A stretch of 64,000 nt of DNA from Bacillota bacterium (GTDB lineage: Bacteria > Bacillota > Clostridia > Christensenellales > CAG-138), in the NCBI GenBank assembly GCA_023455425.1, contig JAEYCM010000012.1, forward strand, positions 52,545 through 116,544, written 5' to 3'. The notes under the pieces were generated by a model. That model ran no database searches. It saw nothing but the letters and a program-made list of their open reading frames with translations, and was not told where the DNA came from. The translations under genes were made by a program, and so were the position numbers. Shown here piece after piece: positions 41,974 through 61,388 of this stretch; the first letter of the stretch is position 1, and every line of letters begins with the position of its first letter.

Positions 41974-43194
41974 ATGAAGAATGTAAGAATTATACCCGTA
42001 ATACCTAAAGAGAATAAAAAGCTTAGAGTTGCAGCTTATTGTCGGGTTAGCACATCCGGACCGGAACAACTGCGCAGCCTTGAGATTCAGATAAAAGCCT
42101 ATACGAACATTATAAAAAGCCATCCCAACTGGCTTTATGCCGGTGTGTTTTACGACATCGAAAGTGGACTGCGGCGAAGTGGCAGAAGTGGACTGGACAA
42201 AATGCTGGGGAATGTGGCAAAGGGCAAAATCGATTACATTATCACCAAGTCAATCAGCAGGGTGTCGAGAGATACGCTTGAGGTTTTGAAGATTATAAGA
42301 TTCTTAAGAGAGCGAGGGATCAACATGCATTTTGAAAATGAGAAGCTGGATTCAATCGAGGCAGAAAAAGAATTTGAGATTACGCTGAGAGCTATGCTGG
42401 CGCAGGACGAAAGTCGGAATATCAGCGAGAATATTCAATGGGGAATTCAGCGCAAGTTTGAAAAAGGCGAGATTTATACGAAGTATAAGAATTTTACGGG
42501 ATACACTTGCGATGACGGTAAGATTGTCATTGTACCAGAACAGGCAGAAGTAGTTAGAAAAATCTTTGACTTATATTTACAAGGCCTGTCGTTGGGGCAA
42601 ATCAAGGCTTACCTGGAAGCCCAGGGGATTAAAACTGTAACGGGCAAGGAGATTTGGGATACAAAAACAATCCAGAGGATGTTGACCAATGAGAAATACA
42701 AAGGCGATACCATGCTTCAAAAGACCTTTACTGAGGATTTTATGACCGGTAAGAAAAGTAAGAATATCGGGCAGCGAAATAAGTATTATGTGAAAAACAG
42801 TCACCCCGCTATTGTTTCCGACGAAGTATTTGATAGGGTGCAGGAGGAAATGGCGAAGCGTGCAAGGCTTGTCAGCAATGAGAATGGTACGGTAGAAACC
42901 CGCGGGAGCAAATATAACGGAAAATATATATTGGGGAATTTGCTCGTATGCGGCGATTGTGGCGCATCTTATCGGAGAAGGACTGAACGCGGTAAGGTGG
43001 TCTGGAGATGTGCTACAAGGATCGAAAAGGGTAAAGATGCTTGCGCTACTTCTCCTACGATAAATGAAGCACAATTGAATGAACAACTGGCAGAGGCAGT
43101 ATGTGGCGGTGTCTATGATGAGGGGATAATTAGGAGCAAGGTCGATAAGATACAGATTTTTGAAAAATTTATTATAATAGCTGCAAAGATGTAG
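41974..43194 (+). CDS. Large serine recombinase (resolvase/invertase catalytic domain + recombinase domain + zinc ribbon)
   Basis: VAAYCRVSTSGPEQ (catalytic Ser), ...ITKSISRVSRDTLEVL..., recombinase domain, Zn ribbon CGDCGASYRRR...WRCATRIEKGKDAC. At 406 aa it is short for the family. Confidence 0.9.
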   Translation: MKNVRIIPVIPKENKKLRVAAYCRVSTSGPEQLRSLEIQIKAYTNIIKSHPNWLYAGVFYDIESGLRRSGRSGLDKMLGNVAKGKIDYIITKSISRVSRDTLEVLKIIRFLRERGINMHFENEKLDSIEAEKEFEITLRAMLAQDESRNISENIQWGIQRKFEKGEIYTKYKNFTGYTCDDGKIVIVPEQAEVVRKIFDLYLQGLSLGQIKAYLEAQGIKTVTGKEIWDTKTIQRMLTNEKYKGDTMLQKTFTEDFMTGKKSKNIGQRNKYYVKNSHPAIVSDEVFDRVQEEMAKRARLVSNENGTVETRGSKYNGKYILGNLLVCGDCGASYRRRTERGKVVWRCATRIEKGKDACATSPTINEAQLNEQLAEAVCGGVYDEGIIRSKVDKIQIFEKFIIIAAKM

Positions 43195-44669: not shown

Positions 44670-44851
44670 CTTTATGCAGTTGAATGATATGGCAACCTCT
44701 TTGGCAGGTTAAGCCATGCGAATTTATATTTATCCCCAAAAACCAAACAGATATCCTGTTTGATAACACTCACATAGGCCCACAAACACGCCAACCCCGC
44801 TTTCGTTGTAGAATAGTCAAGCATGATTTTTTCAGAGGAGAAGGAATTCCT

Positions 44852-47800
44852 ATGACAGATACCTCAAAGACCACCGGCCTTCCAAGTGAAGTATGCCTAA
44901 CACCGACATCTGCCCTAGGGCGAGTACATCTTAAAATTGAGCTTACTTCGGTTATCAACTATGCTTTGCAGCAAAACCGGATTCCTGTTATACGGGAAAT
45001 TCTGATTTGTAATAATAGTACCGATGATATAGAAAATGCTGTGGTGAAATTGCGCTGTGAACCAGAGTTTGTTTGCTCCGCACAGATGAATGTCGCATCG
45101 ATTCCGGCAGGTGCATCCTTTTCTCTCAGCGGATTTCAGCCACAGATCAACGCTTCCTTCTTGGCGGAACTGACCGAACGCATGATAGGCAGACTGGATA
45201 TTGCTTTAGAGGGTAACCAAGGTGAAGTTCTTGCCGCATGCCAATATGAAATTACCGCGCTCGCCTTTGACGAGTGGCATGGAACTGCTTTCTATCCCGA
45301 GTTACTCTGCGCATTTGTAACGCCAAACCACCCGGAGGCTATCAAGATTACAGCCCGCTCAGCACAGCTTTTGGGCAACTGGAGCGGCGATCCTTCACTA
45401 AACGCTTATCAGACCCAAGATCCTAATCGGGTGCTCATGCAGGCAGCGGCAGTTTACGGTGCTTTGCAGGAAGCCAATATTATTTACTCCGTACCGCCTG
45501 CCAGTTTTGAACGCATTGGGCAGCGGGTAAGACTTTGTGATGCGGTCATCCAGCAGAAACTGGGTACTTGTTTGGATTTAACGTTGTTCTATGCTACTTG
45601 CTTGGAAGCAATTGGCCTTCACCCGATTCTTTTGTTACAACAGGGACACATCTTTGCCGGTGTTTGGCTGGAGAACCGCTCGTTTTCGGAGACGGTTGAA
45701 AATGATCCTTCTTTAATTACCAAGCGTATTGCTGAGGGTGTGAACGAGATTGCGGTGGTAGAGTGTACCGCGCTGGTTGCAGGCAAAAATATGAGCTTCG
45801 ATGAAGCAATGGCTGCTGCTGTAAGCAAGCTTCGCGACCCCGATCCGCTGGAATACATTATCGATGTTTCCCGTTCCAGACTGAGTGGGATACGGCCGCT
45901 TCCCCTGCGTATTCAGAGTGAAACCGGATGGAAAATCGAAACGCAAAAAAGAAGTGAAAAGGAATTAACGCGCATTCCTGAATCACTCGGTGAGATTATC
46001 CATGTAGACGAAACCTCGACTAAAAAAACGTGGAGCAAAATGCTGCAATGGGAGCGTAAGCTGCTGGATTTAAGCCTGCGAAATACGCTCATCAATCTAA
46101 GATGGTCGCAAAGCGTTATCCCTATCCTCTGCGAATCATTATCGGATCTAGAGGATGCACTGGCAGACGGAGAGGAGTACGGAATCAGTCCCCGACCTTC
46201 TGAATGGGTACTGCCGGAGGAGCAGCGCCGCAGCATTGAACGTTTGACCGATCTAGGCGATTTCAGAGACCTAATAAAAGTAGAGTTTCAAAACAAGCGT
46301 CTGCGTTCATTTTTAAGCGAAGGTGAGCTTTCCCGTGCAATCGTTAACGTTTATCGCGCCTCCAAAAGCTCATTGGAAGAAAACGGGGCCAACACTCTGT
46401 ACCTTGCCATTGGTTTTCTTCGCTGGTATGAAACCCCGACCAGCCAAAAGCCGAGGTATGCGCCGCTGATCCTGTTGCCAATAGAAATTGTCCGCAAATC
46501 TGCGCTTAAAGGGTATGTAATTCGTATACGAGACGAAGAGCCGCAGATGAACATCACTCTGCTGCAGATGATAGCGCAGGATTTTGGCATACAGATTCAA
46601 GGGCTGGACCCGCTTCCTCTGGATGCAATGGGGATCGATCTGCGCACTGTATTTACCGTCATGCGCAAAGCGGTGATGAATCAACCGCGCTGGGATGTCA
46701 TCGGAGCCGCATTCCTTGGGATATTTTCTTTTTCCCAGTTTGTGATGTGGAACGATATTCGAAACCGTTCCGAGGATCTTCAAAAGAATAAAATTGTTCG
46801 CAGCCTGATGGACGGACGACTCTCTTGGCATGCACGAGAGTTGGAGAGCGACGAGCGGGTGCCCGAAGGTGACACGCTTCTGCCTATTCCGATGGATGCT
46901 TCACAGTTGCACGCCATCCGAGCGGCAGCAGAAGGCCAAAGTTTTGTGCTCCATGGACCTCCCGGCACGGGAAAATCTCAGACGATCACCGCAATAATTG
47001 CCAACGCGCTGGCTAAGGGAAAATCTGTCCTGTTCGTCGCAGAAAAAATGGCAGCATTGTCAGTGGTGCAGCAACGGCTGAAAAATATTGGCATTGGACC
47101 ATTCTGCCTTGAGCTACATTCCAACAAATCCAATAAGCGAGACGTTTTGAATCAACTAAATGAGGCTGCGCAGGTCGCAAAGCAGAATGTGCCGAGCGCC
47201 TGGCTAAAAAAAGCCGAGCAGACTGCGCAACTGCGAGGCGAGTTGGATGTTTACGCGCAGGCGTTGCATAAAGAACAAAAATGCGGCCTATCCCTATTTG
47301 CGATGATCGGCTCATATACGAATTATACCGAATGCTCGGAAACCATTGATTTTTCTCCAAAATTTGCCGAAAGCCTTGACGAAGACCGCATGCAGAAGCA
47401 GCAGATGATGCTGGATAGGCTGATTGCGGCCGCGCGCCTTATCGGCCATCCTTGCCATCATCCCCTGCGAAATGTAGGCAGATCTGTCTATACGCAGCAG
47501 ATCAAGAGCGAGCTACCGCAGAAGTTGGATGCGTATATGTCCGCGCTTGAAAAACTATCAGATGTCGGTATGCTTTTAACGCAAAAGCTGAAACAGCCGA
47601 CACCCCTTATATTTTCGGATTGGGAAAGGATTTACCAGATTGCCTGTCAGCTGCAGGTTTGGATACCGTTGCCCCGATACTGGGGTAGGGATTCGGACTG
47701 GACACGCACCTGTATGGATATTCAAGCAATGGCCTCCCATTTTGATGCGGCACGACGGCTCTATGGTGAGCTGTCCATCCACTGGGAGGAGGGTCTTTTT

Positions 47801-50707
47801 AACTTGGATGGGGCTATGCTCAAAAGCGAATGGACAAGCTCGCAGACCAAATGGTTTCTTCCTAAATTGCTGCAGCAAAGCAAGCTGAAGAAGGCTGTCA
47901 AGGTGTTTTGGAAAACGCCGGATCAAAGAATGCTCGCCGATTCGTTTTTCAAGGCCTTCTCCGACCTAGCCGAATATCAGTCAAATTATGCGGCGGGACA
48001 GGCGCTTTTCGGGCGATACGGTGCGGAGCTGGGAAGCTTATACAACGACGTCAAAACCGATTGGGAAAAAATACGGGCTTATGCCAATGATGCCAAGCAC
48101 AGTGACGCAGAGCTCAACGCGCTGACGGGGAATGATGATTTGCGTATTGCATTTGCGGGTGTAAAGGAGCTCTTTCCGATCATCACTGAATATATAGAGG
48201 CTTACGAGCAGATGTTTATGCCTAGGGATGACTTGCACGCACTTTTGGAAATTGTGCAGGATACGCAGCCTGACGGTGATTGGATTTCGATGCAGTTTGA
48301 CATGTGCAAGCAAATCAAAGCGCATTCGAACGTTCTGAAAGAATGGATGGTTTGGGTCGATTCTGTAAAAGAAGCTGATCTTCTTGGTATGATGCCATTG
48401 GTTGACGCTTACCGAAAGGGGCTGTCTCACGAAGCCGCCGTACCAGCTTATTATAAGGGACTCTATACTGCTCTGATCTATAAAGCCGTAGAGGAAAGTC
48501 CTGTGCTTAATAGTTTTTCCGGTGTGGTATTCCATGAAAAAATTCGCCAGTTTCAGCAGTTGGATGCAGAACTGACCGAACTGGCAAAAAGGGAAGTGTT
48601 TTACCGCCTTGCGTCCCAAGTTCCAAATTTCACACAGGAAGCATCACAGAAATCGGAAGTTGGTGTGCTGCAGCGCGCAATCCGAAGCGGCGGTCGAGGT
48701 GTTAGCATCCGCCGCCTGTTTGAGCAGATATCTAACCTGTTGCCTAGGCTTTGCCCCTGCATGCTAATGAGTCCTCTTTCTGCCGCACAATATCTCGACC
48801 CGAACCGAAAGCCATTTGACCTTGTCATCTTTGACGAAGCATCTCAAATGCCTACAGCCCGAGCCGTGGGTGCTTTGGCGCGGGGGGCCAATGCGATTAT
48901 TGTGGGTGACCCAAAGCAGATGCCGCCCACAAGCTTTTTTTCGGGCAACGCGCTAGATGAGGACAATTTGGAAACTGAGGATTTGGAGAGCATTTTGGAC
49001 GATACGCTGGCGTTGAACATGCCTCAGTCTCATTTGCTATGGCACTATCGAAGCCGTCATGAAAGCTTGATTGCTTTTAGTAATCATCACTTTTATGCGG
49101 ACAAGCTATACACCTTCCCTTCCATCAATGATCGGGAGTCGAAGGTGACGCTGGTGCCTATCGACGGTTTCTTTGACCGGGGAAAATCGCGGCAGAACCG
49201 CGCGGAGGCGGAGGCAATCGTAAGCGAACTGATCCGCCGCAGCCAGGATCCGGTTTGTATGGAGCAGAGCGTGGGTGTCGTCAGCTTCAACATCCAACAG
49301 CAAAATCTGATTGACGATCTGTTTACCGAGGCCTGCAAATCAAACTCTGAGTTGGAGCAATGGGCCTACGAGTCGACGGAGCCGATCTTCATTAAAAACC
49401 TGGAGAATGTTCAGGGAGATGAACGGGATGTCATCCTGTTTTCCATCGGCTATGGTCCGGATGCTACGGGCAAGACGTATATGAATTTTGGCCCCTTAAA
49501 CCGAGAGGGCGGCTGGCGGAGGCTCAATGTGGCCGTGTCCCGCGCACGGCAGGAAATGAAAGTCTTTTCTTCGATTCGGGCGGATCAGATCGATCTCGCG
49601 CGCACCGCCGCCGAGGGGGTTGTCGCACTGAAGGCATTTTTAGAATACGCTTCCGGTGCAGCCTTGACTAATAATGCCCAAAACCTTTTTAAAGCCGCAG
49701 ATGACAAAAATGGCGTGGCCATTATGCTTAAGCGTAGGCTGGAGCGAGAAGGATATCAGTCGCAGCTGCAGGTGGGGCATTCTAAATATAAAATTGACTT
49801 AGGTGTCATTGATCCGAAAAAACCAAGCCGATATTTGATGGGAATTCTGTTGGATGGAGAGGCGTATCAATCTGCCAAAACGACGAGAGACAGGGAGTTG
49901 TCCCAAATCAGCGTACTAAAAGGATTGGGATGGCGCATTCATCGGCTTTGGTCAGTGGACTGGTGGGACAACAGCGACAAAGAATTTGCTAAGATTATAG
50001 ACCTGCTGAAGGCACCTGTGTCCTGTGCGGATCCATTATTGCTCAAAACCGGTTTGCCGATGGATGGCGCTGCGCAACCCGTCCCAAACCAGAAGCTGGA
50101 GCATTCTCTTTACGAGGCAAGTATATTGTCGACATCATCCGCTCCCACGTCAGAGACCGCGTTGTATCAAGCAGCTACTTTGCCGGTACGGCCCATGACG
50201 CCGGACGAATACCTGCTCCCCCAAAAGGTCGGCCTGATCAAAAGCGCAATTCATACGATCCTTGAGCAGGAAGCGCCTATCAGCGAACCACTGTTGACCC
50301 GGCGTGTTGTACAGAGCTTTGGCATCTCTCGAGCAGGTTCGCGTATTCAGCAAAGAACAGCGGCGGTTCTTCGTAGCATGAATCTGCTCTGTACCCGTCA
50401 TGGTGACCAGACCTATTACTGGCTTAGTTCCCAGCATCCGGATACCTATTCCAGCTTTCGTGTTTCTGCTTCGGGTGTTCGGGAGGCTGGCGATATACCG
50501 GTACAGGAAATAGCTAACGCCGTCTGCGCTGCGCTTGAACGACAAATTGCAATGCCGAAGGATGATCTATTACGGGAAACAGCAAATCTACTGGGGTACA
50601 CTCGTTTGGGCAATAACGTTATCTCGTCGGTAACGGCAGGTATAGTGTATGCAGTGAAAACAAGGAAAATTGTGGAACAAAAAGACGATTACTATGTGTT
50701 GACATAA
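44852..50707 (+). CDS. 1,951-aa multidomain SF1 helicase-nuclease: transglutaminase-like N-domain, DUF4011-like region, Upf1/DNA2-like (AAA_11/AAA_12) helicase, DUF559/Vsr-like endonuclease fold, DUF3320-like C-terminus
   Basis: LGTCLDLTLFYATCLEAIGLHP...GHIFAGVW (Cys/His core). Walker A LHGPPGTGKSQT (46955-46978). VIFDEASQM, GDPKQMPPTSF, WHYRSRHESLI, NVQGDERDVILFSIGYG, RRLNVAVSRAR. Then GYQSQLQVGHSKYKIDLGVID...ILLDGEAYQSAKTTRDRE...GWRIHRLWSVDWW and PISEPLLTRRVVQSFGISRAGSRI. ATG 44852 after AGAGGAGAAGG. Confidence 0.9.
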   Translation: MTDTSKTTGLPSEVCLTPTSALGRVHLKIELTSVINYALQQNRIPVIREILICNNSTDDIENAVVKLRCEPEFVCSAQMNVASIPAGASFSLSGFQPQINASFLAELTERMIGRLDIALEGNQGEVLAACQYEITALAFDEWHGTAFYPELLCAFVTPNHPEAIKITARSAQLLGNWSGDPSLNAYQTQDPNRVLMQAAAVYGALQEANIIYSVPPASFERIGQRVRLCDAVIQQKLGTCLDLTLFYATCLEAIGLHPILLLQQGHIFAGVWLENRSFSETVENDPSLITKRIAEGVNEIAVVECTALVAGKNMSFDEAMAAAVSKLRDPDPLEYIIDVSRSRLSGIRPLPLRIQSETGWKIETQKRSEKELTRIPESLGEIIHVDETSTKKTWSKMLQWERKLLDLSLRNTLINLRWSQSVIPILCESLSDLEDALADGEEYGISPRPSEWVLPEEQRRSIERLTDLGDFRDLIKVEFQNKRLRSFLSEGELSRAIVNVYRASKSSLEENGANTLYLAIGFLRWYETPTSQKPRYAPLILLPIEIVRKSALKGYVIRIRDEEPQMNITLLQMIAQDFGIQIQGLDPLPLDAMGIDLRTVFTVMRKAVMNQPRWDVIGAAFLGIFSFSQFVMWNDIRNRSEDLQKNKIVRSLMDGRLSWHARELESDERVPEGDTLLPIPMDASQLHAIRAAAEGQSFVLHGPPGTGKSQTITAIIANALAKGKSVLFVAEKMAALSVVQQRLKNIGIGPFCLELHSNKSNKRDVLNQLNEAAQVAKQNVPSAWLKKAEQTAQLRGELDVYAQALHKEQKCGLSLFAMIGSYTNYTECSETIDFSPKFAESLDEDRMQKQQMMLDRLIAAARLIGHPCHHPLRNVGRSVYTQQIKSELPQKLDAYMSALEKLSDVGMLLTQKLKQPTPLIFSDWERIYQIACQLQVWIPLPRYWGRDSDWTRTCMDIQAMASHFDAARRLYGELSIHWEEGLFNLDGAMLKSEWTSSQTKWFLPKLLQQSKLKKAVKVFWKTPDQRMLADSFFKAFSDLAEYQSNYAAGQALFGRYGAELGSLYNDVKTDWEKIRAYANDAKHSDAELNALTGNDDLRIAFAGVKELFPIITEYIEAYEQMFMPRDDLHALLEIVQDTQPDGDWISMQFDMCKQIKAHSNVLKEWMVWVDSVKEADLLGMMPLVDAYRKGLSHEAAVPAYYKGLYTALIYKAVEESPVLNSFSGVVFHEKIRQFQQLDAELTELAKREVFYRLASQVPNFTQEASQKSEVGVLQRAIRSGGRGVSIRRLFEQISNLLPRLCPCMLMSPLSAAQYLDPNRKPFDLVIFDEASQMPTARAVGALARGANAIIVGDPKQMPPTSFFSGNALDEDNLETEDLESILDDTLALNMPQSHLLWHYRSRHESLIAFSNHHFYADKLYTFPSINDRESKVTLVPIDGFFDRGKSRQNRAEAEAIVSELIRRSQDPVCMEQSVGVVSFNIQQQNLIDDLFTEACKSNSELEQWAYESTEPIFIKNLENVQGDERDVILFSIGYGPDATGKTYMNFGPLNREGGWRRLNVAVSRARQEMKVFSSIRADQIDLARTAAEGVVALKAFLEYASGAALTNNAQNLFKAADDKNGVAIMLKRRLEREGYQSQLQVGHSKYKIDLGVIDPKKPSRYLMGILLDGEAYQSAKTTRDRELSQISVLKGLGWRIHRLWSVDWWDNSDKEFAKIIDLLKAPVSCADPLLLKTGLPMDGAAQPVPNQKLEHSLYEASILSTSSAPTSETALYQAATLPVRPMTPDEYLLPQKVGLIKSAIHTILEQEAPISEPLLTRRVVQSFGISRAGSRIQQRTAAVLRSMNLLCTRHGDQTYYWLSSQHPDTYSSFRVSASGVREAGDIPVQEIANAVCAALERQIAMPKDDLLRETANLLGYTRLGNNVISSVTAGIVYAVKTRKIVEQKDDYYVLT

Positions 50708-50746: not shown

Positions 50747-52924
50747 ATGGGATTCTACTTAAGAAAATCAATAAGTTTTGGTGGCGTTCGGTTCGACTTT
50801 TCGAAATCTGGTATCGGCGCATCGGTTGGAGTAAAGGGTTTCCGTTTCGGAATGGGTCTACGAGGCAACTACGTGCATATGGGGCGAGGTGGCATCTATT
50901 ATCGCGCCGTACTCGGAGCAAAGAAAGGTAACGTACAACGTACGCAACCTGCTCGTCCTGAAGGCGAAAGGGATAAAGGCGATGGTTTGCTGTTCCAGGA
51001 AATTGAAAGCGGTGATATTTCCTTTATCATTGATTCATCTTCTCAAGAAATTGTAAATGAGATCAACGCTAAGTGTAAAAAGACACCATGTTGGCCTCTT
51101 GCAATCTTGTGTGCATTTATTCCGTCGGTGGGTATTCCTATCGCGATTATAGCTGCCATTTTAATTAATGTGCTCATCGACAAAAGACGAAAGACAACTA
51201 TTATCTTTTACGATATCGAGGAACAGGCAGAGCAGGAGATACAACAACTTTACAACGCTTTTGAGCAGCTGATGAATTGCAGTTTCGTATGGCACATTGC
51301 CTCTCAAGCAGCTGTGCAGGATAGAAAATATCATGCAGGCGCAAGCACAGTAGTCAGACGAACAAAAATCAAAATAGAATACAAGACTCCTCCTTACCTT
51401 AAAACGAATGTGAAGGTGCCTGCTATTCCTGTTGGAAAACAGATACTCTATTGCTTCCCCGATAGGATACTAATCTATGAGGGTAAACAAGTTGGTGGTA
51501 TTTCTTACGCAAACTTGTCTATTAGGCAGAGGGGGCAAAGATTCATCGAGGATGGGATTGTTCCGGAGGATGGAACAATTGTGGATCATACTTGGCGCTA
51601 TGTTAACAAGTCTGGCGGTCCAGATAAGCGATTCAAGGATAATCGAAAACTTCCCATTTTGATATATTCAGACATCTCTTTTCAGAGCGATACAGGGTTG
51701 AACGAGTTAATCGAATTATCTAAGCAGGATGTGGGCGTTGAACTAATACAGCAACTAGACAAATACAAAGCAAGCCCGTGGTGGAATGAAGAATTGGAGT
51801 CTTCTAAGGGCATCCAAATGCCAGCATCACAACCTCAACCGATATTGCTGCCCAAGCAAGTAAGTGCGGAAGCTGCGATGCCATCTATTGAAGTAATACC
51901 CCAAATCATTTCTTCAACGCCGAAAGATGTCATCCCTGCTGAGATACGGATAAAAGACGCCATCGCTAGTTCGCACGGATTATACCCCCATGAGGTGCTG
52001 GTACTTGATTATTCCCACTCATACTATACGGAAGGGAACCATTATCAAAGTTTCTGGTGGTATGGATACGGTGTGAGTAATGTTGACGCGCTTCTACGTT
52101 CCCTCCTCGACAGAGGATTTTTGCAGGTCGGCGATTTGCAGAGCGCTATTGAGAATGAAAATGCTGTGGTGCTAAAGGAAGAACTCAAAAAGTATGGCAG
52201 CAAAGTGAGTGGTAAAAAAGCGGAATTGGTACATCGGTTGATAAATGAGGTTTCGCATGACGAGCTGAGTGTTCGGTTTACAAAAAGAATGTACCAATTA
52301 ACAGAGCTTGGAAAGCGGGCGCTTGAAGAAGAAGCTTATGTACCTTACATCCATCGTCATCCGTTCGAAGGGTTAGATATCTGGTCGCTCAACAGAATTA
52401 TGTATACTCCGCCGTACATGTCATTTCGAGATAAAATTTTGGATTATCTTTATCAACGTGGCACAGAACATATCTCCGCTGGGAATTTTGGGCTTTATAG
52501 AAACTGTCGTTACAGTATGTCAGTACTTTTGCAAGAAGAGAAACGGTATATGGATGCGCTCGGTATGTTGGCGGAAGTTGTTTTTTACGATTTGAGTGGG
52601 CTTAGCAATAATTACGATCCGAAATATCTTGACATTTATGCTGAAAGTTATTTTCCATACCAGGAATCGAGCGCAACAACGGCGCCCGGCATAATAGATG
52701 CGATTTTGCAATGCCAAAAGGAACTTGGCATTGTTGAAGATGAGTTAAAATCTGAGTTGCTTAATCATATGAGGAGACTAAGTGCGCCGTTGCATCTTTT
52801 CACCCCTGAAGAATGCGTAGACATTGTGCTTGGGGAGGTTTGTGAGAACACTGAAGCACTGACAAAAATATACTCAAAAGCAAAACGGCGATTCAAACAA
52901 AAGTATCCGAGCCTCAAGTGTTAA
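50747..52924 (+). CDS. DUF4236-N-terminal membrane protein with a C-terminal SAP-motif region
   Basis: MGFYLRKSISFGGVRFDFSKSGIGASVGVKGFRFGMGLRGNYVHMGRGGIYYR (DUF4236-like). TM segment WPLAILCAFIPSVGIPIAIIAAILINVLI. SAP-like LKEELKKYGSKVSGKKAELVHRLINEV. Starts 39 nt after the helicase stop. Confidence 0.85.
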   Translation: MGFYLRKSISFGGVRFDFSKSGIGASVGVKGFRFGMGLRGNYVHMGRGGIYYRAVLGAKKGNVQRTQPARPEGERDKGDGLLFQEIESGDISFIIDSSSQEIVNEINAKCKKTPCWPLAILCAFIPSVGIPIAIIAAILINVLIDKRRKTTIIFYDIEEQAEQEIQQLYNAFEQLMNCSFVWHIASQAAVQDRKYHAGASTVVRRTKIKIEYKTPPYLKTNVKVPAIPVGKQILYCFPDRILIYEGKQVGGISYANLSIRQRGQRFIEDGIVPEDGTIVDHTWRYVNKSGGPDKRFKDNRKLPILIYSDISFQSDTGLNELIELSKQDVGVELIQQLDKYKASPWWNEELESSKGIQMPASQPQPILLPKQVSAEAAMPSIEVIPQIISSTPKDVIPAEIRIKDAIASSHGLYPHEVLVLDYSHSYYTEGNHYQSFWWYGYGVSNVDALLRSLLDRGFLQVGDLQSAIENENAVVLKEELKKYGSKVSGKKAELVHRLINEVSHDELSVRFTKRMYQLTELGKRALEEEAYVPYIHRHPFEGLDIWSLNRIMYTPPYMSFRDKILDYLYQRGTEHISAGNFGLYRNCRYSMSVLLQEEKRYMDALGMLAEVVFYDLSGLSNNYDPKYLDIYAESYFPYQESSATTAPGIIDAILQCQKELGIVEDELKSELLNHMRRLSAPLHLFTPEECVDIVLGEVCENTEALTKIYSKAKRRFKQKYPSLKC

Positions 52925-53021
52925 GCGGGAGAATCAATTACCACAATCTACATTTAATTCCGCCAATTCTTCAGAGTTCAAGATTGACATCAGATAATAT
53001 TATTTAATTTACACTAAACCA

Positions 53022-53041
53022 TGGTATAATATTCGTATAAT
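53022..53041 (+). promoter_or_regulatory. Candidate promoter of the peptide/rSAM/NTPase cassette
   Basis: Extended -10 TGgTATAAT (53022-53030) and a second TATAAT (53036-53041), 37-56 nt upstream of the peptide ATG. Confidence 0.5.
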
Positions 53042-53077
53042 GGAAAAGTAATTCTTGTCGAAAAGGAGGTGAGCAAT

Positions 53078-53194
53078 ATGGGTTACACAAAACCTGCGGT
53101 ATTAGCACAAAGTACTGTACGGATGGCACAATGCACTCCCAATAGTAAACCGAGTGGAAGACCTTGTGATCCACCAAGGCCAGGTGGACGGTAA
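53078..53194 (+). CDS. 38-aa candidate RiPP-type precursor peptide MGYTKPAVLAQSTVRMAQCTPNSKPSGRPCDPPRPGGR (not in the ORF track)
   Basis: Strong RBS AGGAGG (53064-53069) 8 nt before the ATG. Two Cys and a Pro/Arg/Gly-rich C-terminal half. Lies immediately upstream of an RRE-rSAM-SPASM gene and is followed by a long hairpin. Confidence 0.6.
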   Translation: MGYTKPAVLAQSTVRMAQCTPNSKPSGRPCDPPRPGGR

Positions 53195-53204
53195 TACAAT
53201 TCAA

Positions 53205-53241
53205 TCAGACGACGAAGTTTTAATAAAAACTCGTCGTCTGA
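53205..53241 (+). other. Long intercistronic hairpin between the peptide ORF and the rSAM gene
   Basis: Perfect 11-bp arms TCAGACGACGA / TCGTCGTCTGA, extended by GTTTT/AAAAC. No T-run follows, so it looks like an RNA-stability/attenuation element rather than a full terminator. Confidence 0.7.
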
Positions 53242-53260
53242 TTAACTAAGGAGAAATTGT

Positions 53261-54775
53261 ATGTTTTTCAAACAAAAATCTAATATTTTATTCAGAAACT
53301 ATGAGTCCTTTGGATATATAACGGACAATAGGAATTTCGGATATAAACAAGCAGATGATAACAAAAATGACATCGGGGATAAAATTCTATCGGAAAGTGG
53401 AGCTGTGTTTTTTTCAGTTTTAAGCAGAAAGCCTCAAACCCTTGACGTTCTTGCTCAAAAAATAAATAAGAAATTTACAGATGTTGATATCGAAACAATA
53501 AAGAATGATGCCAGAGACTTTTACTTTATGCTTGAACAAAATGGATTTATTGTATCTGGCGAAACAATGCAGGAGTGCGAAAAAAAAGATACAAAGTTTT
53601 CGTACAAAATACTTGAACCCGAGATAATAAAAAATGACTATTCTCCGACTATTATGCGGCCTGAAAGATCCACACAGGAATTTTTAGAAGAATATTTTAA
53701 TGACAAGCCTCAACTTACAAATTTACATATAGAAATTACAAGCAAGTGCAATGAAAGATGCGTACATTGCTATATTCCGCATGAGAACAAAGCAAGTGAT
53801 ATCGAACCTGATTTATTTTATGATGTTTTAAAGCAATGTAAAGCTATGAGATTATTACATTTGACAATAAGCGGTGGTGAACCACTATTGCACAAAAGTT
53901 TTTGTGATTTTTTAAGAAAATGTAAGGAATACGATTTTTCAGTAAATATTCTTAGCAACTTAACTTTACTTAATGATGAAATAATCAAAGCAATGAAAGT
54001 AAACCCTCTTTTAGGGGTTCAAGTCTCACTATATTCAATGGATTCCAATATTCACGATGGAATAACCCAAATGAAAGGAAGCTTTGAAAAGACAAAGAAC
54101 GCAATTTTGCAGCTTATTGAAAACGATATACCTTTACAAATAAGCTGTCCAATAATGAAACAAAATAAAAACTGCTATGGGGACGTTAAAAATTGGGCAA
54201 GAACACATAATGTTCAAGTTAGAGATGACTATGTCATCATAGCACAATATAATCATACAACACAAAATCTGAGTAACCGTCTATCCATTGATGAAATCAA
54301 AGAAGTAATTAAAGAGATTGTTGTGAATGATACAAGCTATTGGGAGAGAGCGGAAAGAGATGCAGAGAGTAAAAAAGATCTTACACCAAACGATTATATT
54401 TGTAGTGTTTGTCATTCATCCATTTGCATAGCAGAGAATGGAAATGTATATCCATGTGCTGGCTGGCAGGATTATAATATCGGTAATATGAAAGAAGCTT
54501 CTCTCAAAGATATTTGGAATAATTCTGAAAAAATACAATATCTCAGAGGCTTAAGAAGAAAAGATTTTCCTAAATGTATTCAATGCCATGATAAAGAGTT
54601 TTGTACCATGTGTATGGTTAGAAATGCAAATGAAGACCCCTTGGGAGATCCATTAGCAGTTAATGAGCATTTTTGTAATATTGCAAAACTGAATAGAAAT
54701 ATGATGCTTGAATGGAAAGAAAAACTTAAAAGTTCTTTGAATAAAGTTATTCCATATGCAAACAACCAACGATAA
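53261..54775 (+). CDS. Radical SAM / SPASM-domain peptide-modifying enzyme with an N-terminal PqqD-like RRE
   Basis: RRE-like ILSESGAVFFSVLSRKPQTLDVLAQKINKKF...ARDFYFMLEQNGFIV. Cluster motif SKCNERCVHCY (CxxxCxxC). GGEPLL. SPASM Cys pattern CSVCHSSICIAENGNVYPCAG...CIQCHDKEFCTMC...FC. AAGGAGA RBS. Confidence 0.9.
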   Translation: MFFKQKSNILFRNYESFGYITDNRNFGYKQADDNKNDIGDKILSESGAVFFSVLSRKPQTLDVLAQKINKKFTDVDIETIKNDARDFYFMLEQNGFIVSGETMQECEKKDTKFSYKILEPEIIKNDYSPTIMRPERSTQEFLEEYFNDKPQLTNLHIEITSKCNERCVHCYIPHENKASDIEPDLFYDVLKQCKAMRLLHLTISGGEPLLHKSFCDFLRKCKEYDFSVNILSNLTLLNDEIIKAMKVNPLLGVQVSLYSMDSNIHDGITQMKGSFEKTKNAILQLIENDIPLQISCPIMKQNKNCYGDVKNWARTHNVQVRDDYVIIAQYNHTTQNLSNRLSIDEIKEVIKEIVVNDTSYWERAERDAESKKDLTPNDYICSVCHSSICIAENGNVYPCAGWQDYNIGNMKEASLKDIWNNSEKIQYLRGLRRKDFPKCIQCHDKEFCTMCMVRNANEDPLGDPLAVNEHFCNIAKLNRNMMLEWKEKLKSSLNKVIPYANNQR

Positions 54776-54811: not shown

Positions 54812-57800
54812 ATGCTTGAAATAAACTGGAACATTTTCAAAGCAAAATTTAATAATAAAGAACAAAAAACGTTCGAGAACTTAAGTTACCTTCTATTTTG
54901 TGACGAGTTTAATAAGGATACAGGAATCTTTCGCTATAAAAATCAGGCAGGAATAGAAACAGAGCCAATCGAGCATGATGGAAAAATCATTGGATTCCAA
55001 GCTAAATTTTATGAGACTAAAATCAGCGATAACATACCGGATATTAAGAATTCTATCAAGAAGGCGAAAGAAAAAAATCCAAATATAAATAAAGTATTAT
55101 TTTATATTAATCAAGAGTTTTCTGAGAGTACAACCATAGGGCAAAAAGAACCCCGATACAAAATTATTATTGAGGAGTTTGCGGCAAGTAAAGGCATCGA
55201 AATCGAGTGGAGAGTACCCAGCTATTTTGAAAGACAACTGGCGCTTGAGAAAAACATTTCCTTTGGAAAGCATTTTTTTGCTATAGATAAAGGTACCTTT
55301 GACCTCGTGCAGGACTTGATTCAGCATACGGAATCTATTCTTGCCCCTATCCGTTCAGACATAGAATATCAGGGCAATACAATAAAGCTGGACAGATCAG
55401 CCATCTTGGCCGGTTTGCAGTCTGCTTTAACCCTAACCGAACCTCCAGTTGTCATTGTGAGCGGAAAAGGCGGCGTCGGAAAGACCGCGGTAATTAAAGA
55501 TTTTTATACTCAACTCAAAGAATCGATACCGATTATTATGTTTAAGGCTGCAGAGTTTAATGTCTCTAATATTAATTGCCTTTTTAATGTTTATGGAGAT
55601 TTCACATTAGCTGATTTTATATCTGAGTATCAGCGTATAGAAGAAAAATATATTGTCATTGATTCCGCTGAAAAATTATCCGACATAGAAGATCAGAATC
55701 CATTTCAAGAGTTTTTATCTAGACTAATCAACAACAAATGGAAGGTAATATTTACAACAAGGTATAGCTATCTTGATGACCTAAAATTTCTGTTAATGGA
55801 ATTGTACCGGCTATCGTTTACTTCACAAAATATTGAAGAAATCAGTGAAAAAGAACTTGCGGAGCTATCCAGCAAGTATTCTTTCAACCTTCCGCAAAAT
55901 GCAAGACTACTTGAACTGTTGCAGAACCCTTTTTATCTCGCGGAATATTTGAGTGAATATAAAAATATAAAAGCCTCAGCAAGCCTTTCGGATTTTAGAA
56001 ATCTTCTATGGAATAAACATATCGTAAAGTCGGCTTACCGAAAAAATAATATTCATATCAAGAGAGAAGCTTGCTTTTTACAGATTGCTCGGAAGAGAGC
56101 CGATGAAGGACAGTTTTTTGTAAACATAGAGAACTATGATAATGAAACGCTACAATCTCTTGAAGCGGATGAAATAATCAGATATGATGCAAATGCAGGC
56201 GGATACTTTATTACTCATGATATTTATGAAGAATGGGCGCTAGGGAAAATAATCGAACGGAACTACGCTTCATTATTAACTTATGAGAGCTTCTTTGCAA
56301 TATTGGGAAGCAGTTTGCCTATTCGTAGGGCTTTCAGAAACTGGTTGTCCGAAAAGCTATTTATCAATTATGGAGATATTAAGTTATTAATCGAACACTC
56401 CTTTGCCAATGACGCGGTAGCGTCATTCTGGAAAGATGAACTGATTGTTTCTGTTTTGCTGTCGGAATACTCGCAAGTATTTTTCCAATTATTCAAAACA
56501 AAACTTATGGAGGACGAACAGGCACTTTTGGTACGGGTTGTTTTTTTGCTTAGAATTGCCTGCAAAGAGATTGCCGATAGTTTTTTGCCCGTGATAGTTA
56601 CTCAACCAAAAGGCAGCGGATGGTCATATGTAATCGATTTCATCCATAGTCACAAAGAAACTCTTGGTAACGAACATATATCAACGATTCTTCCCATGCT
56701 GGCTGATTGGAATGATAAAAATACTCATGGAAATACAACAAAGAAGGCAAGTCAGATTGCTCTGTTCTACTATGAAAACATAGTAGGCCAAGGAGGATTT
56801 GGGTATAGATCCGAAGGGAAAATAAAGGAACCACTCATCAGGGTTATACTACAGGGCTCAGCAGAAATTAGAGAAGAACTGAAACATATTTTCGATGGAA
56901 TACTTACTAGAAACGAACCTAATCATAAAGATAGAGACTATGAACTGGTCGAAGTAATACTGACCTCAATCACCGATAACTATGAAGTCATAAAAATACT
57001 TCCTGACTATGTTATTAAGCTGGCGGAACTATTTTGGGTATATAAGCCGAAAAAAGATAATAAAGTTTTGAACATTAGGTCATCGGAACTTGAAGAAAAT
57101 TTTGGCCTCTCCCATAGACCTGATGATTGGTACTTTCCTCCAAGCGCTTTGCAAACGCCATTTTACCAGCTTTTAAGGCATGATACCAATATGACGGTAA
57201 ATTTTATTTTAAAATTTATGAATATGGCAGTCGAAAATTATGTAAAGTCTGAATTCAAAGACGAAGTGGAAGAAGTTAAAGTTTTTCTCGATAGCGACTG
57301 TCAGATTAATCAATACGTCAGTAATAGGTTATGGAATACCTACAGAGGCACTCAGGTTTCCACACATCTTCTGGAATCGATGCATATGGCCTTGGAAAAA
57401 TGGCTGCTGGATTACGCCAAATATGGAAAGACTGAGCATCTGGAAGAATGGTGTTATTATCTTATAAAAAATTCTTGCTCAGCCTCCATCACTGCTGTAG
57501 TCGCCAGCGCTGTCATGGCCTATCCATCTAAGCTGTTCACTATTGCAAAGATTCTTTTTCGAACCAAGGAATTTTTCTATTATGATACCAAGAGAATAGT
57601 ACTAGACGAATCCGCTAAGTTAACCTATTCTATTGGACACGGCTTAAATTTTAAACGTGATATATATTCGGACGAAAGAATCAAGACCTGCGAAGACAAA
57701 CACAGGAAGAAAAGATTTGAACAATTGGCCGTAGAATATCAGTTCTTTAGGTCGGAAAACGTTAGTGCCGAAGAAGCGGAAGTAAGGCAAAAGGCCTTAT

Positions 57801-59548
57801 GGGAAATATTTGATGTCTATTATAAAGAACTAGAGGGAAAGCCTGAAGATACTGAAGACAACCAAATATGGAGATTGTGCCTGGCAAGAATGGATCGAAG
57901 AAAAATGAATCCGGAATTAGAACAAACAGAGGAAGGAATTTCAATTAACTTTAACCCACAGCTTGAGCCGGAATTAAAAAAATATAGCGATGAGGCTTTA
58001 CAGGAATATAACGACGCAAATAAGTATATACCTCTATACTTATGGTCCAGATACAGATTCGCTAACGAAAAGGGGAAATATAGCCAGTATCAGCAATACG
58101 AAAATAATCCGCGTTTAGTAGTCATAGAACTAAGAGAGATTATGCAAGCTTTAAAAATTGGATCTCCAGAAGATTTTCGATTATTTAATCGGTCTATCCC
58201 GGCCTATGCCTGCGCAGTCTTGGTCAGGGATTTTAGCAATGAGTTAAGTCGGGAAGAAATAGAATTTTGTAAAGATATACTTATAGAATATTCCGCATCG
58301 CCGTTTCATGCGAGTCGCTATGTATATCAAGCTTTAGACGGAATAGAGCCCGCCATTAGTTCTTTATCTTACCTACTTAAATTTTTTTCTACAGAAAGGG
58401 AAGAGTTCGAAGGTATTAAAGGCCTGATGTTATTCTTGCTTTTTGTGCATGGAAAGATTCCTGAATTTACCACTCGAGCCATCTTGCAAAATTTATGGGA
58501 TATCAGTTTTGAAGATGCGCATTCCCTCTTTTTAGGATACATGTTCCTCAAGCCAAAATACGACAAGTTAGCGAAGAAATTGCAAGAAGATAATTATAAG
58601 AAACATATTTATGAAATTTCCGATAATCAAATTCTTGAGGTGTTTGGCGAGCAATACGAAAGTGAAATCAAAAAGATTATTTCGAATGATATTAAGTATG
58701 TCGATATTCCAAATGCACAAAACAAGAACTTGAGAATGTTGACCCGGGCATTTGAGTCGTTGCCACCAGGCACAAAGCATCCAGAACATATTAATTTTGT
58801 TTCAGAGATATTTCCGATCTTCGCCCAGAGAGTTTTTAAACGCGACAGGCATAACGATGACGAAGAAAAATTTGACTATACAATAAAAAACGAATTTCTA
58901 GATAAGTTTGCTGCCTTTGTCTTAACCGCAGATAAAGATATGATAGAAACATATCTTCAGCCGTTTATTGAAAACTTTAAAGTATCGGATGATACGGTGC
59001 GGTTCTTTCAATCTTTTATTTTTGCTGAAGATAGATTGAACAGATACGAAGAATTTTGGCATACATGGCATCTATTTTATGGAAAAATTAAGGATATCTG
59101 CACAGCGAAAAGTTATTATCATGATACCAAAGAAACTATTTATAATTATCTACTGGCATGGCCATATTGGAAGAACACTGCACGAGAATGGCACTCTTTA
59201 AAAGAACGAGAGAAAATTTTTTATAAAAAGGCCTCCGAGGATATGGGCCATTTCCCGCCCGTATTATATTCTATATCTAAAGTCCTTAACGATATCGGGA
59301 GCAACTTCATAGAAGACGGGATATTATGGCTGAGTGAAATAATAAACAAGAATAATAATTTGCTGACTGAGGAGCTTGAAGTAAATACCATTTATTATCT
59401 TGAATGCATCGCACGTAAATACATTCTTGCGAACCGTCAAAAAACCAAAACAATGCCGCAGATGAAAAAGGCACTCATTAGTATTTTGAACTTTTTGGTG
59501 GAGAGAGGCTCGGCGACTGGGTATTTATTACGTGAAAATATTTTATAA
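54812..59548 (+). CDS. 1,578-aa STAND-like P-loop NTPase with an N-terminal PD-(D/E)xK-like (Mrr/Cap4-like) nuclease domain and a ~1,100-aa helical-repeat C-terminus
   Basis: N-terminus FENLSYLLFCDEF...GIETEPIEHDGKIIGFQAKFY (acidic residues plus a QxK triad). Walker A VIVSGKGGVGKTAV (55463-55486). Walker B-like KYIVIDSAEKL. The rest is long and alpha-helical in appearance. AGGAGA RBS, 36 nt after the rSAM stop. Confidence 0.85.
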   Translation: MLEINWNIFKAKFNNKEQKTFENLSYLLFCDEFNKDTGIFRYKNQAGIETEPIEHDGKIIGFQAKFYETKISDNIPDIKNSIKKAKEKNPNINKVLFYINQEFSESTTIGQKEPRYKIIIEEFAASKGIEIEWRVPSYFERQLALEKNISFGKHFFAIDKGTFDLVQDLIQHTESILAPIRSDIEYQGNTIKLDRSAILAGLQSALTLTEPPVVIVSGKGGVGKTAVIKDFYTQLKESIPIIMFKAAEFNVSNINCLFNVYGDFTLADFISEYQRIEEKYIVIDSAEKLSDIEDQNPFQEFLSRLINNKWKVIFTTRYSYLDDLKFLLMELYRLSFTSQNIEEISEKELAELSSKYSFNLPQNARLLELLQNPFYLAEYLSEYKNIKASASLSDFRNLLWNKHIVKSAYRKNNIHIKREACFLQIARKRADEGQFFVNIENYDNETLQSLEADEIIRYDANAGGYFITHDIYEEWALGKIIERNYASLLTYESFFAILGSSLPIRRAFRNWLSEKLFINYGDIKLLIEHSFANDAVASFWKDELIVSVLLSEYSQVFFQLFKTKLMEDEQALLVRVVFLLRIACKEIADSFLPVIVTQPKGSGWSYVIDFIHSHKETLGNEHISTILPMLADWNDKNTHGNTTKKASQIALFYYENIVGQGGFGYRSEGKIKEPLIRVILQGSAEIREELKHIFDGILTRNEPNHKDRDYELVEVILTSITDNYEVIKILPDYVIKLAELFWVYKPKKDNKVLNIRSSELEENFGLSHRPDDWYFPPSALQTPFYQLLRHDTNMTVNFILKFMNMAVENYVKSEFKDEVEEVKVFLDSDCQINQYVSNRLWNTYRGTQVSTHLLESMHMALEKWLLDYAKYGKTEHLEEWCYYLIKNSCSASITAVVASAVMAYPSKLFTIAKILFRTKEFFYYDTKRIVLDESAKLTYSIGHGLNFKRDIYSDERIKTCEDKHRKKRFEQLAVEYQFFRSENVSAEEAEVRQKALWEIFDVYYKELEGKPEDTEDNQIWRLCLARMDRRKMNPELEQTEEGISINFNPQLEPELKKYSDEALQEYNDANKYIPLYLWSRYRFANEKGKYSQYQQYENNPRLVVIELREIMQALKIGSPEDFRLFNRSIPAYACAVLVRDFSNELSREEIEFCKDILIEYSASPFHASRYVYQALDGIEPAISSLSYLLKFFSTEREEFEGIKGLMLFLLFVHGKIPEFTTRAILQNLWDISFEDAHSLFLGYMFLKPKYDKLAKKLQEDNYKKHIYEISDNQILEVFGEQYESEIKKIISNDIKYVDIPNAQNKNLRMLTRAFESLPPGTKHPEHINFVSEIFPIFAQRVFKRDRHNDDEEKFDYTIKNEFLDKFAAFVLTADKDMIETYLQPFIENFKVSDDTVRFFQSFIFAEDRLNRYEEFWHTWHLFYGKIKDICTAKSYYHDTKETIYNYLLAWPYWKNTAREWHSLKEREKIFYKKASEDMGHFPPVLYSISKVLNDIGSNFIEDGILWLSEIINKNNNLLTEELEVNTIYYLECIARKYILANRQKTKTMPQMKKALISILNFLVERGSATGYLLRENIL

Positions 59549-60806: not shown

Positions 60807-61388
60807 ATGGGCGTTCGTGAAGAACAAAGAGAAAAGCGGCGGGAAGAAATTCTTGCGGCCGGACTTGATCTGTTTATCCGCAAGGGATATGCCGCAACAA
60901 AAATCAGCGATATTGCAGAGCGTGTCGGTATGAGTGTGGGGCTTTTGTTTCATTATTTTGAATCGAAAGAAAAGCTGTATGAAGAGCTGATAAAAGTCGG
61001 TATTTCAGCTCCAATGAGCGTTATGGATTCCCCCGGTACAGAGCCGCTGCAGCTTTTTGAGCGCGCCGCAGAACGGATTTTTTATTATATAAAAGCCAAA
61101 CCGTTTGCCGCAAAAATGTTTGTGCTGATGAGTCAGGCTTTTTATAACGAAGCGGCGCCGCAAAGTATCAAAGAGTTGTTATCAAACTTTGATATTTACG
61201 CGCTGACCACCCGGTCAATTCAACAAGGTCAGGCAAACGGCACAATTCGCGACGGTGATCCATACGCACTGGCAATTGCTTATTGGTGCGCCATCCAGGG
61301 CATCGCAGAGTGGATGGCACTAAATCCCGATGCTCCCTGTCCGGAGAGCAATTGGATTACAGATATTATCAGGAGGAAATCCGAATGA
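60807..61388 (+). CDS. TetR/AcrR-family transcriptional regulator
   Basis: N-terminal HTH EILAAGLDLFIRKGYAATKISDIAERVGMSVGLLFHYFESKEKLY. Confidence 0.9.
   Translation: MGVREEQREKRREEILAAGLDLFIRKGYAATKISDIAERVGMSVGLLFHYFESKEKLYEELIKVGISAPMSVMDSPGTEPLQLFERAAERIFYYIKAKPFAAKMFVLMSQAFYNEAAPQSIKELLSNFDIYALTTRSIQQGQANGTIRDGDPYALAIAYWCAIQGIAEWMALNPDAPCPESNWITDIIRRKSE

Follow-up and report, generated by a model that had tools for sequence, protein, structure and literature searches.

The 64,000-nt stretch of Bacillota bacterium DNA analyzed here (GenBank assembly GCA_023455425.1, contig JAEYCM010000012.1, positions 52,545 to 116,544; hereafter, the window) raises the question of what is encoded directly upstream of its gene for a radical S-adenosylmethionine (radical-SAM) enzyme. 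A length-filtered six-frame track lists an antisense open reading frame (ORF) at this place, whereas a preliminary description of the sequence had pointed to an unlisted 38-aa ORF on the plus strand, followed by a hairpin. Judged by its conservation, the plus-strand ORF is a real and strongly constrained gene. Together with the hairpin and the enzyme gene, it very probably forms a self-contained two-gene cassette for a ribosomally synthesized and posttranslationally modified peptide (RiPP), composed of precursor, hairpin, and maturase, and represents a family of its own, new and so far unnamed, among the radical-SAM RiPPs, which as a class are known. The peptide gene, the hairpin, and the maturase gene, which encodes a putative RiPP recognition element (RRE), a radical-SAM domain, and a SPASM domain, all lie on one strand:

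53004..53204, minus strand: antisense 66-aa ORF of the six-frame track, rejected as a gene (TTG start, no ribosome-binding site, stops in homologs)
53022..53030, plus strand: candidate extended -10 promoter element TGGTATAAT, read by eye, 47 nt 5' of the peptide ATG
53064..53069, plus strand: Shine-Dalgarno sequence AGGAGG, 8 nt 5' of the peptide ATG
53078..53194, plus strand: precursor peptide gene, 38 aa plus stop, translation MGYTKPAVLAQSTVRMAQCTPNSKPSGRPCDPPRPGGR
53078-53131, plus strand: leader, about residues 1-18
53132-53191, plus strand: Cys/Pro/Arg-rich core, about residues 19-38
53203..53243, plus strand: conserved RNA hairpin (13 bp, 1-nt bulge, 5 bp, loop AATA, no U-tract)
53248..53253, plus strand: maturase Shine-Dalgarno sequence AAGGAG, 7 nt before the maturase ATG, its position conserved in the alignment
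53261..54775, plus strand: maturase, 504 aa, with a PqqD-like segment, Radical_SAM, and SPASM

The peptide ORF runs from an ATG at 53078 to a TAA at 53192-53194, and its sequence and its AGGAGG-N8-ATG ribosome-binding site are exactly as the preliminary description had given them. The same applies to its carboxyl-terminal half, with Cys19, Cys30, Asp31 directly after the second Cys, and seven Pro residues, and to its G+C content, which is higher than that of its surroundings (48.7%, against 32% in the upstream spacer and 31.8% in the downstream gene). The exact 38-aa sequence was missing from 15 billion predicted proteins, so the peptide gene has never been called on the source contigs. The peptide had no match in NCBIfam, Pfam, or PADLOC, and literature searches with its motifs returned no papers.

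Homologs of the enzyme were scanned for in one genome per species, which yielded 36 loci, 35 of which were examined for an upstream peptide. A co-oriented small ORF was found 58-91 nt 5' of the enzyme gene in 26 of the 35, and locus L009 adds a copy that lies further upstream, bringing the count to 27; a locus on a viral contig (L047) likewise carries its copy further upstream. The preliminary description had held that a precursor gene would be in doubt if orthologous radical-SAM genes lacked a small ORF with spaced Cys residues 5' of them. Rather, such an ORF is found beside the maturase gene, co-oriented with it, and conserved with it. Across loci, the peptides share the consensus MxYxKPxILAQSTxQMAECRPNSKPSGRPCNPPxPGGR, and AAAGGAGGT is kept 7-8 nt before the peptide ATG in almost all of the related loci. 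Another four loci, which are more distant, combine the same leader with other Cys-containing cores. A profile search of a database of 5.8 billion sequences recovered 376 peptide clusters, all of them 'hypothetical' and without a Pfam domain; at the 50%-identity level, the peptide family comprises 54 clusters.

The pattern of substitutions indicates which frame is under selection. Among 17 distinct 117-nt sequences, the proportions of synonymous (pS) and nonsynonymous (pN) differences in the plus frame were 0.48 and 0.12 (pN/pS 0.25), and the entropies of the three codon positions were 0.35, 0.28, and 0.77, highest at the third. The antisense frame contained stops in 12 of the 17 homologs and had a pN/pS of 1.25, and every frame other than that of the plus-strand peptide showed a ratio at or above 1, or stops. 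It is because of the conserved ORF, the low pN/pS, and the constrained residues in the clusters that we regard the plus-strand ORF as the gene, in agreement with the preliminary description.

Alternatively, the 66-aa minus-strand ORF could be the real gene, being the one that the six-frame track lists, or the region could be a noncoding regulatory RNA in which the plus-strand ORF is incidental, as it also holds a conserved RNA hairpin. No Shine-Dalgarno-like sequence precedes the TTG start of the minus-strand ORF, as had been noted before, and the comparative data already refute it as a gene: its frame is interrupted and evolves at a ratio of 1.25, against 0.25 with third-position variation in the plus frame. 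In addition, the strong Shine-Dalgarno sequence before the plus-strand ORF is conserved at a fixed spacing, no Rfam family matches the spacer and hairpin, and the hairpin lies outside the ORF. This alternative, in either form, is barely credible. In one locus (L018:1-160), the peptide gene is truncated, with only ...SCNPPAPGGR left and joined to sequence of 70-78% G+C, the result of an insertion or deletion or else of a chimera at the end of the contig.

The hairpin starts 9 nt after the peptide stop codon. Its arms pair perfectly over 13 bp (53203-53215 with 53231-53243), followed by five more pairs past the bulge, and it folds at -26.6 kcal/mol, compared to -10.0 +/- 2.7 kcal/mol for shuffled sequences (z = -6.15; 0/200 shuffles as good). 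The preliminary description had placed a hairpin with perfect 11-bp arms and no T-run after the stop codon; the perfect arms and the missing T-run stand, but the element is somewhat larger than described. The sequence 3' of it is AACTAAGGAG, and a scan for Rho-independent terminators did not call it. Lacking a U-tract, the hairpin is therefore not a canonical terminator.

An alignment of the spacers of 26 loci revealed a 10-bp consensus helix, CAGGCGRCGA ... TCGYCGCCTG, in which 98.4% of the cells form standard pairs. Double (compensatory) changes were present in at least one sequence at 8 of the 10 pairs, and 0/500 column shuffles reached any of five measures; as a control, shifting the 3' arm over 1-3 columns lowered pairing to 26-54%. 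This covariation establishes the hairpin between precursor and maturase genes as a conserved RNA element, as had been proposed. At one helix position, 12 sequences have A-U and 12 have G-U, and at another, 3 have U-G. Since such pairs would mismatch on the opposite strand, the constraint acts on the sense-strand RNA. A Deferribacteraceae locus (L022) and a divergent two-domain family (L056) carry hairpins of different sequence at the same place.

Stem-loops of a similar kind are found after nisA and after sboA, where the stem-loop separates sboA from albA. Our best inference is that the hairpin would serve as a 3'-end-protecting or attenuating element, setting the ratio of precursor to maturase. 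For the thiopeptide gene pbtA, a stem-loop is known to end the precursor transcript (PMC8269224).

In two unrelated loci, the stop codon of the peptide gene and the hairpin are set apart by an insertion located exactly between them (L009:560-940, a Pseudodesulfovibrio metagenome-assembled genome, and L047:4950-5175, an IMG/VR contig). These insertions are 230-330 nt long and G+C-richer, and have common motifs such as AAAGTTCAATGSCAAGAGG and TTTGACTTTC. Rfam returned nothing convincing for either of them, and that of L047 folds with z = -2.3; they may represent a small RNA element, either mobile or regulatory.

Upstream of the peptide, a simple sigma-70 two-hexamer scan called no promoter at the expected place. 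An identical TGGTATAAT is aligned at a similar distance in the nearest Bacillota relative (L001), and we consider it a candidate extended -10 promoter element. About 130 nt 5' of the peptide ATG, the Bacteroidota loci (L002-L033) have a common block of about 130 nt (…AACAACTGCAAACCATTAAAG…GATAAAGCTTTGAAAAATAG…), which is missing in the window; the window and L001 have TGGTATAAT instead.

The enzyme encoded downstream of the hairpin contains a radical-SAM core (PF04055, 71.5 bits, residues 157-303) with the CX3CX2C motif C163-X3-C167-X2-C170, and a SPASM domain (PF13186, 43.8 bits, residues 381-472), with nine Cys residues between residues 381 and 472. Homologs of the enzyme number roughly 3,000. 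Among the best 118 single-domain clusters, its homologs showed 74-89% identity and came from Bacteroidota, Bacillota (Dehalobacter, Desulfitobacterium), Parcubacteria, and others; for several of these homologs, a match to the PqqD-like family PF05402 was precomputed. The solved structures closest by sequence are SkfB (E 2e-13; profile 9e-15), SuiB, PqqE, and BtrN. A Foldseek search with the better-predicted core of an AlphaFold2 model returned SuiB, anSME, SkfB, CteB (5WGG/5WHY), and PqqE, all of them SPASM or twitch enzymes that modify peptides or proteins, although the poor quality of the model means that this result supports the enzyme class only, and no particular chemistry.

None of the characterized families to which the enzyme was compared could accommodate it. 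Its NCBIfam matches were to generic SPASM maturases. The models for WgkB (81.9 bits, cut-off 650), PqqE (80.6, cut-off 381.35), MftC (77.1, cut-off 265), and HxsC (76.3, cut-off 267.9) all scored far below their cut-offs, as did the sactisynthase models SkfB (TIGR04403; 60.4, cut-off 300), StsB (NF045574; 60.4, cut-off 625), and AlbA (NF012164; 53.2, cut-off 850), and that for PapB (NF047865; 53.5, cut-off 340). No SCIFF maturase model was present among the 25 best of 61 NCBIfam matches.

The organization of the locus nevertheless resembles that of sactipeptides (SkfA/SkfB, SboA/AlbA), where a short Cys-containing precursor is likewise encoded directly 5' of a maturase with a radical-SAM domain and a carboxyl-terminal auxiliary-cluster domain, preceded by an RRE, which in the present enzyme is putative. 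Apart from its sub-cut-off scores, the cassette differs from these in lacking export and immunity genes, in its Pro/Arg-rich peptide with two Cys residues, and in its cross-phylum mobility and location in defense islands. Similarly, ranthipeptides (CteA/CteB thermocellin, PapA/PapB freyrasin, SCIFF) share the radical-SAM and SPASM maturase with its RRE, the latter putative here, with CteB among the Foldseek neighbors, and have Cys residues near potential acceptors of the Asn, Asp, or Thr type, for which C19-x-P-N22 would be an example here. The low PapB score, the absence of a SCIFF-type six-Cys peptide, and the lack of conservation of Asp31 set the cassette apart from this group.

With PqqE and MftC among the better NCBIfam matches, and PqqE a structural neighbor as well, a redox cofactor or small metabolite, such as pyrroloquinoline quinone (PQQ) or mycofactocin, could also be derived from the peptide. 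The RRE-dependent radical-SAM/SPASM pathways for these cofactors (PqqA/PqqE, MftA/MftC) also have a short, extremely conserved precursor, with PqqD-type recognition and cross-linking by a radical-SAM/SPASM enzyme as predicted here. However, the scores of both models are far below their cut-offs (381 and 265 bits), the cassette is linked neither to genes for accessory processing nor to dehydrogenases that depend on a cofactor, and its patchy occurrence on islands, together with a foreign, AT-rich composition, fits accessory cargo and not metabolism. We therefore find a cofactor precursor improbable, and favor a modified peptide as the product of the two-gene cassette.

Across 93 clusters with a peptide of the 38-aa type, Y3, P6, A17, C19, P21, P25, G27, R28, C30, P35, and G37 are invariant. 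At residue 31, 74 of these clusters have N, 12 have K, 3 have D, and 2 have E. Thus, while the interpretation of the locus as precursor, hairpin, and maturase is borne out, the Asp after Cys30, which the preliminary description had put forward as an acceptor, is not a conserved feature, with Asn as the usual residue. The amino-terminal half is leader-like, as it had suggested: the motif YxKPx[IV]LAQ is common even to divergent subfamilies with differing cores, which have a hairpin too. With the enzyme at just 51% identity in Pectobacterium, the peptide core is still unchanged (CRPNSKPSGRPCNPPGP), which argues that the constraint falls on the product. A related family (P0009, P0012; L056:5150-7932) encodes an 825-aa protein in which an RRE-less radical-SAM/SPASM domain is fused to an enzyme with RRE, radical-SAM, and SPASM domains; its peptide, MKYSKPQVLAQNGKQGVFAAGCGAKNTTFTSSCKNCERSS, encoded upstream, has kept the leader and has a different core with three Cys residues, and here too a hairpin comes after it.

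We propose that the cassette would be read as a single transcript starting near TGGTATAAT. With no U-tract and a position 9 nt past the stop codon, the hairpin would most likely act as a 3'-end stabilizer or partial stop, leaving more precursor mRNA than maturase mRNA, much as the preliminary description had suggested. The leader (M-x-Y-x-K-P-x-[IV]-L-A-Q-S) would dock on the N-terminal PqqD-like recognition domain, and the radical-SAM site (C163/C167/C170) would generate a 5'-deoxyadenosyl radical. Together with the SPASM auxiliary clusters, the enzyme would then form cross-links in the core, at Cys19, which is invariant, and at Cys30, which is nearly so. Judging from SkfB, CteB, and AlbA, thioether cross-linking of the two Cys residues is most likely, and the product would be a constrained Pro/Arg-rich peptide of 20 residues, CxPNSKPSGRPCxPPxPGGR.

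Some observations weigh against this interpretation. Three distant homologs of the enzyme showed no peptide within 300-400 nt upstream. The PqqD-like match in the maturase (PF05402, residues ~43-97) scored 23.0 bits, just under the cut-off of 23.4, and the AlphaFold2 model, for which the alignment was shallow and its sequences 60-88% identical to the query, was poor (predicted local distance difference test score 60.6, below 50 at the N-terminus); with an unreliable N-terminus and a sub-threshold match, the RRE is a putative one. Finally, one peptide cluster (P0272, MNYSKPTVLAKNSTYMAQCRPNKPSGRPSNPPRPSGR) carries Ser at the second Cys position, so that the first Cys alone is strictly invariant family-wide.

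Beyond its two genes, the cassette appears to travel alone. Clustering of neighboring ORFs from 34 loci revealed no conserved partner gene, and neither an exporter, a leader protease or peptidase, nor an immunity gene was conserved beside the cassette in about 40 contexts. The only recurrent neighbor, found in at least 5 contexts directly 3' of the maturase gene, encodes a TPR/DUF2971 protein of ~500-600 aa without a PADLOC match, which may be an optional third component:

L008:11584-13158: TPR/DUF2971 gene
L015:11503-13020: TPR/DUF2971 gene
L018:1787-3313: TPR/DUF2971 gene
L020:11585-13384: TPR/DUF2971 gene
L045:11577-13043: TPR/DUF2971 gene

Precursor, hairpin, and maturase have been inherited together across at least 6 phyla, and the core is almost frozen in Bacteroidota, Bacillota, Chloroflexota, Spirochaetota, Desulfobacterota, Pseudomonadota, and bacteria of the candidate phyla radiation. 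Carriers include Desulfitobacterium hafniense (L039) and Pectobacterium peruviense IFB5232 (L029). The G+C content of the enzyme gene stays at 28-35%, while that of the host flanks ranges from 26 to 59%. Nearby markers of mobility and of integrative and conjugative elements (ICEs) include, in D. hafniense, a DDE transposase along with a serine recombinase, and elsewhere a Y2 transposase, SSB, and RadC, an insertion sequence element, an integrase with ArdA and DUF3945, a VapE-like primase, and a tRNA gene. Bacteroidota rarely use Shine-Dalgarno sequences, and the strong AAAGGAGGT that is retained in the copies from this phylum therefore fits recent transfer between phyla. IMG/VR viral contigs contained just one homologous locus, suggesting that the cassette is not typically phage-borne, and a megablast search of E. 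coli genomes gave no match. The single viral contig (L047) also carries two type II hammerhead ribozymes about 1 kb apart (L047:1-58 and 1018-1089; 46.5 and 68.6 bits, gathering score 37).

The cassette might also be thought to produce a secreted bacteriocin or signaling peptide, for instance an antimicrobial or quorum signal of the ranthipeptide or sactipeptide type, serving as a mobile competition factor and relying on the host's housekeeping functions for export and leader removal. The nearest characterized enzymes (SkfB and those of the AlbA and CteB/PapB types) indeed make secreted peptides, and RiPP clusters are common cargo of ICEs in Bacteroidota (bioRxiv 10.64898/2026.08.04.741601). 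Yet no transporter, protease, or immunity gene has been conserved with it in any of the ~40 contexts, the peptide has no double-Gly or other recognizable export leader, and the core is almost invariant across phyla, unlike that of typical, fast-diversifying bacteriocins. A secreted product is thus rather unlikely in our view, and an intracellular one is preferred.

The preliminary description had not covered the mobility of this minimal cassette, its spread across phyla, or its place in a defense island. The host is probably a Feifaniaceae-like member of the Clostridia, known as a metagenome-assembled genome, because DnaE of the window belongs to a 90%-identity cluster that also holds a Feifaniaceae protein. 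In the window, the cassette lies within an AT-rich island at ~42-63 kb (41974-63000; 33-50% G+C, against ~57% for the host chromosome), which contains the following genes:

41974..43194: large serine recombinase, opening the island, homologous to one in L001, which carries the same cassette
44684..50707: ProA (NF058533, 2039 bits; PADLOC PDC-S37)
50747..52924: DUF4236/SAP-domain protein, after ProA
54812..59548: Avs4 (2059 bits)
60807..61388: TetR regulator, in the island together with several unknown ORFs

The cassette is thus flanked by two defense genes, ProA and Avs4. Because the ProA/DUF4236-SAP genes and Avs4 are missing from the other loci, the cassette was rejected as a part of either system. 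Known or candidate defense genes were found within a few genes of the cassette in ~11 of 18 contexts, a count from a sample of about 18 inspected by hand and not a genome-wide statistic. PDC-M34A/B (DUF5343 and HEPN) lies immediately 5' in L001 and L039, and a SIR2 gene immediately 3' in L048. In L050, the cassette has a ThsB-TIR/caspase/kinase block on one side and, on the other, TCAD9 and a CBASS CD-NTase with TIR-STING effector. PDC-S27 is encoded three genes 3' in L045. In L013, a PDC-S37/Hhe-like helicase scoring 486 bits lies no more than four genes away (L013:9057-13124), echoing the ProA of the window. Further neighbors were an AriA/GajA/AbiL-type ATPase (L016), a type I restriction-modification specificity subunit (L014), and DNA methyltransferases (L006, L011). 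Besides the size of the hand-inspected sample, a link to defense is weakened by several inspected contexts that are plain ICE or transposon cargo regions, and by PADLOC, which has no model for the cassette and returned generic viperin-type radical-SAM matches only.

There is precedent for ribosomal products that are modified and act against phages. In the HXS system (HxsA-D), radical-SAM enzymes mature a periplasmic, ribosomally made effector, and the system protects against phages (bioRxiv 10.64898/2026.01.06.697848). The cassette resembles it in its radical-SAM/SPASM enzyme, which would mature a ribosomally made effector here too, but has two genes instead of four, an HxsC score of 76.3 against 267.9 bits, and no HxsA, HxsB, or HxsD. 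Anti-phage lanthipeptides have also been reported (bioRxiv 10.1101/2024.06.26.600839), which differ in their lanthipeptide synthetases, actinobacterial hosts, and multi-gene clusters. Literature searches for radical-SAM RiPPs in defense islands or mobile elements returned only these analogous HXS and lanthipeptide reports, together with reports on grasp-with-SPASM.

The absence of exporter, protease, and immunity genes, the near-invariance of the core even where the enzyme is 51% identical, and the location on mobile islands beside defense genes make it most likely that the product works within the cell that makes it, on a target that is itself conserved, and is carried along to the benefit of the mobile element. 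A role in defense against phages or other elements is the leading candidate. More specifically, and only tentatively, the cassette may be a minimal RiPP module of a new kind, serving immunity or conflict, in which the cross-linked, Pro/Arg-rich 20-mer is kept inside the cell and blocks a conserved step in the propagation of phages or foreign elements.

Whatever its role, the cassette adds a real gene to a widespread enzyme family labeled only 'radical SAM/SPASM protein', and defines a new precursor family of hundreds of clusters for which neither Pfam nor NCBIfam has a model. The sense-strand hairpin offers a natural model for the control of precursor/maturase stoichiometry. The almost frozen core, carried on AT-rich foreign DNA and without export machinery, points to an intracellular, target-constrained function, and at two genes and 1.8 kb, the cassette is a testable candidate for chemical, peptide-based anti-phage defense. 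If this role holds true, it would be the first two-gene radical-SAM peptide defense system, with a nearly universal effector sequence that spreads between phyla as cargo of defense islands.

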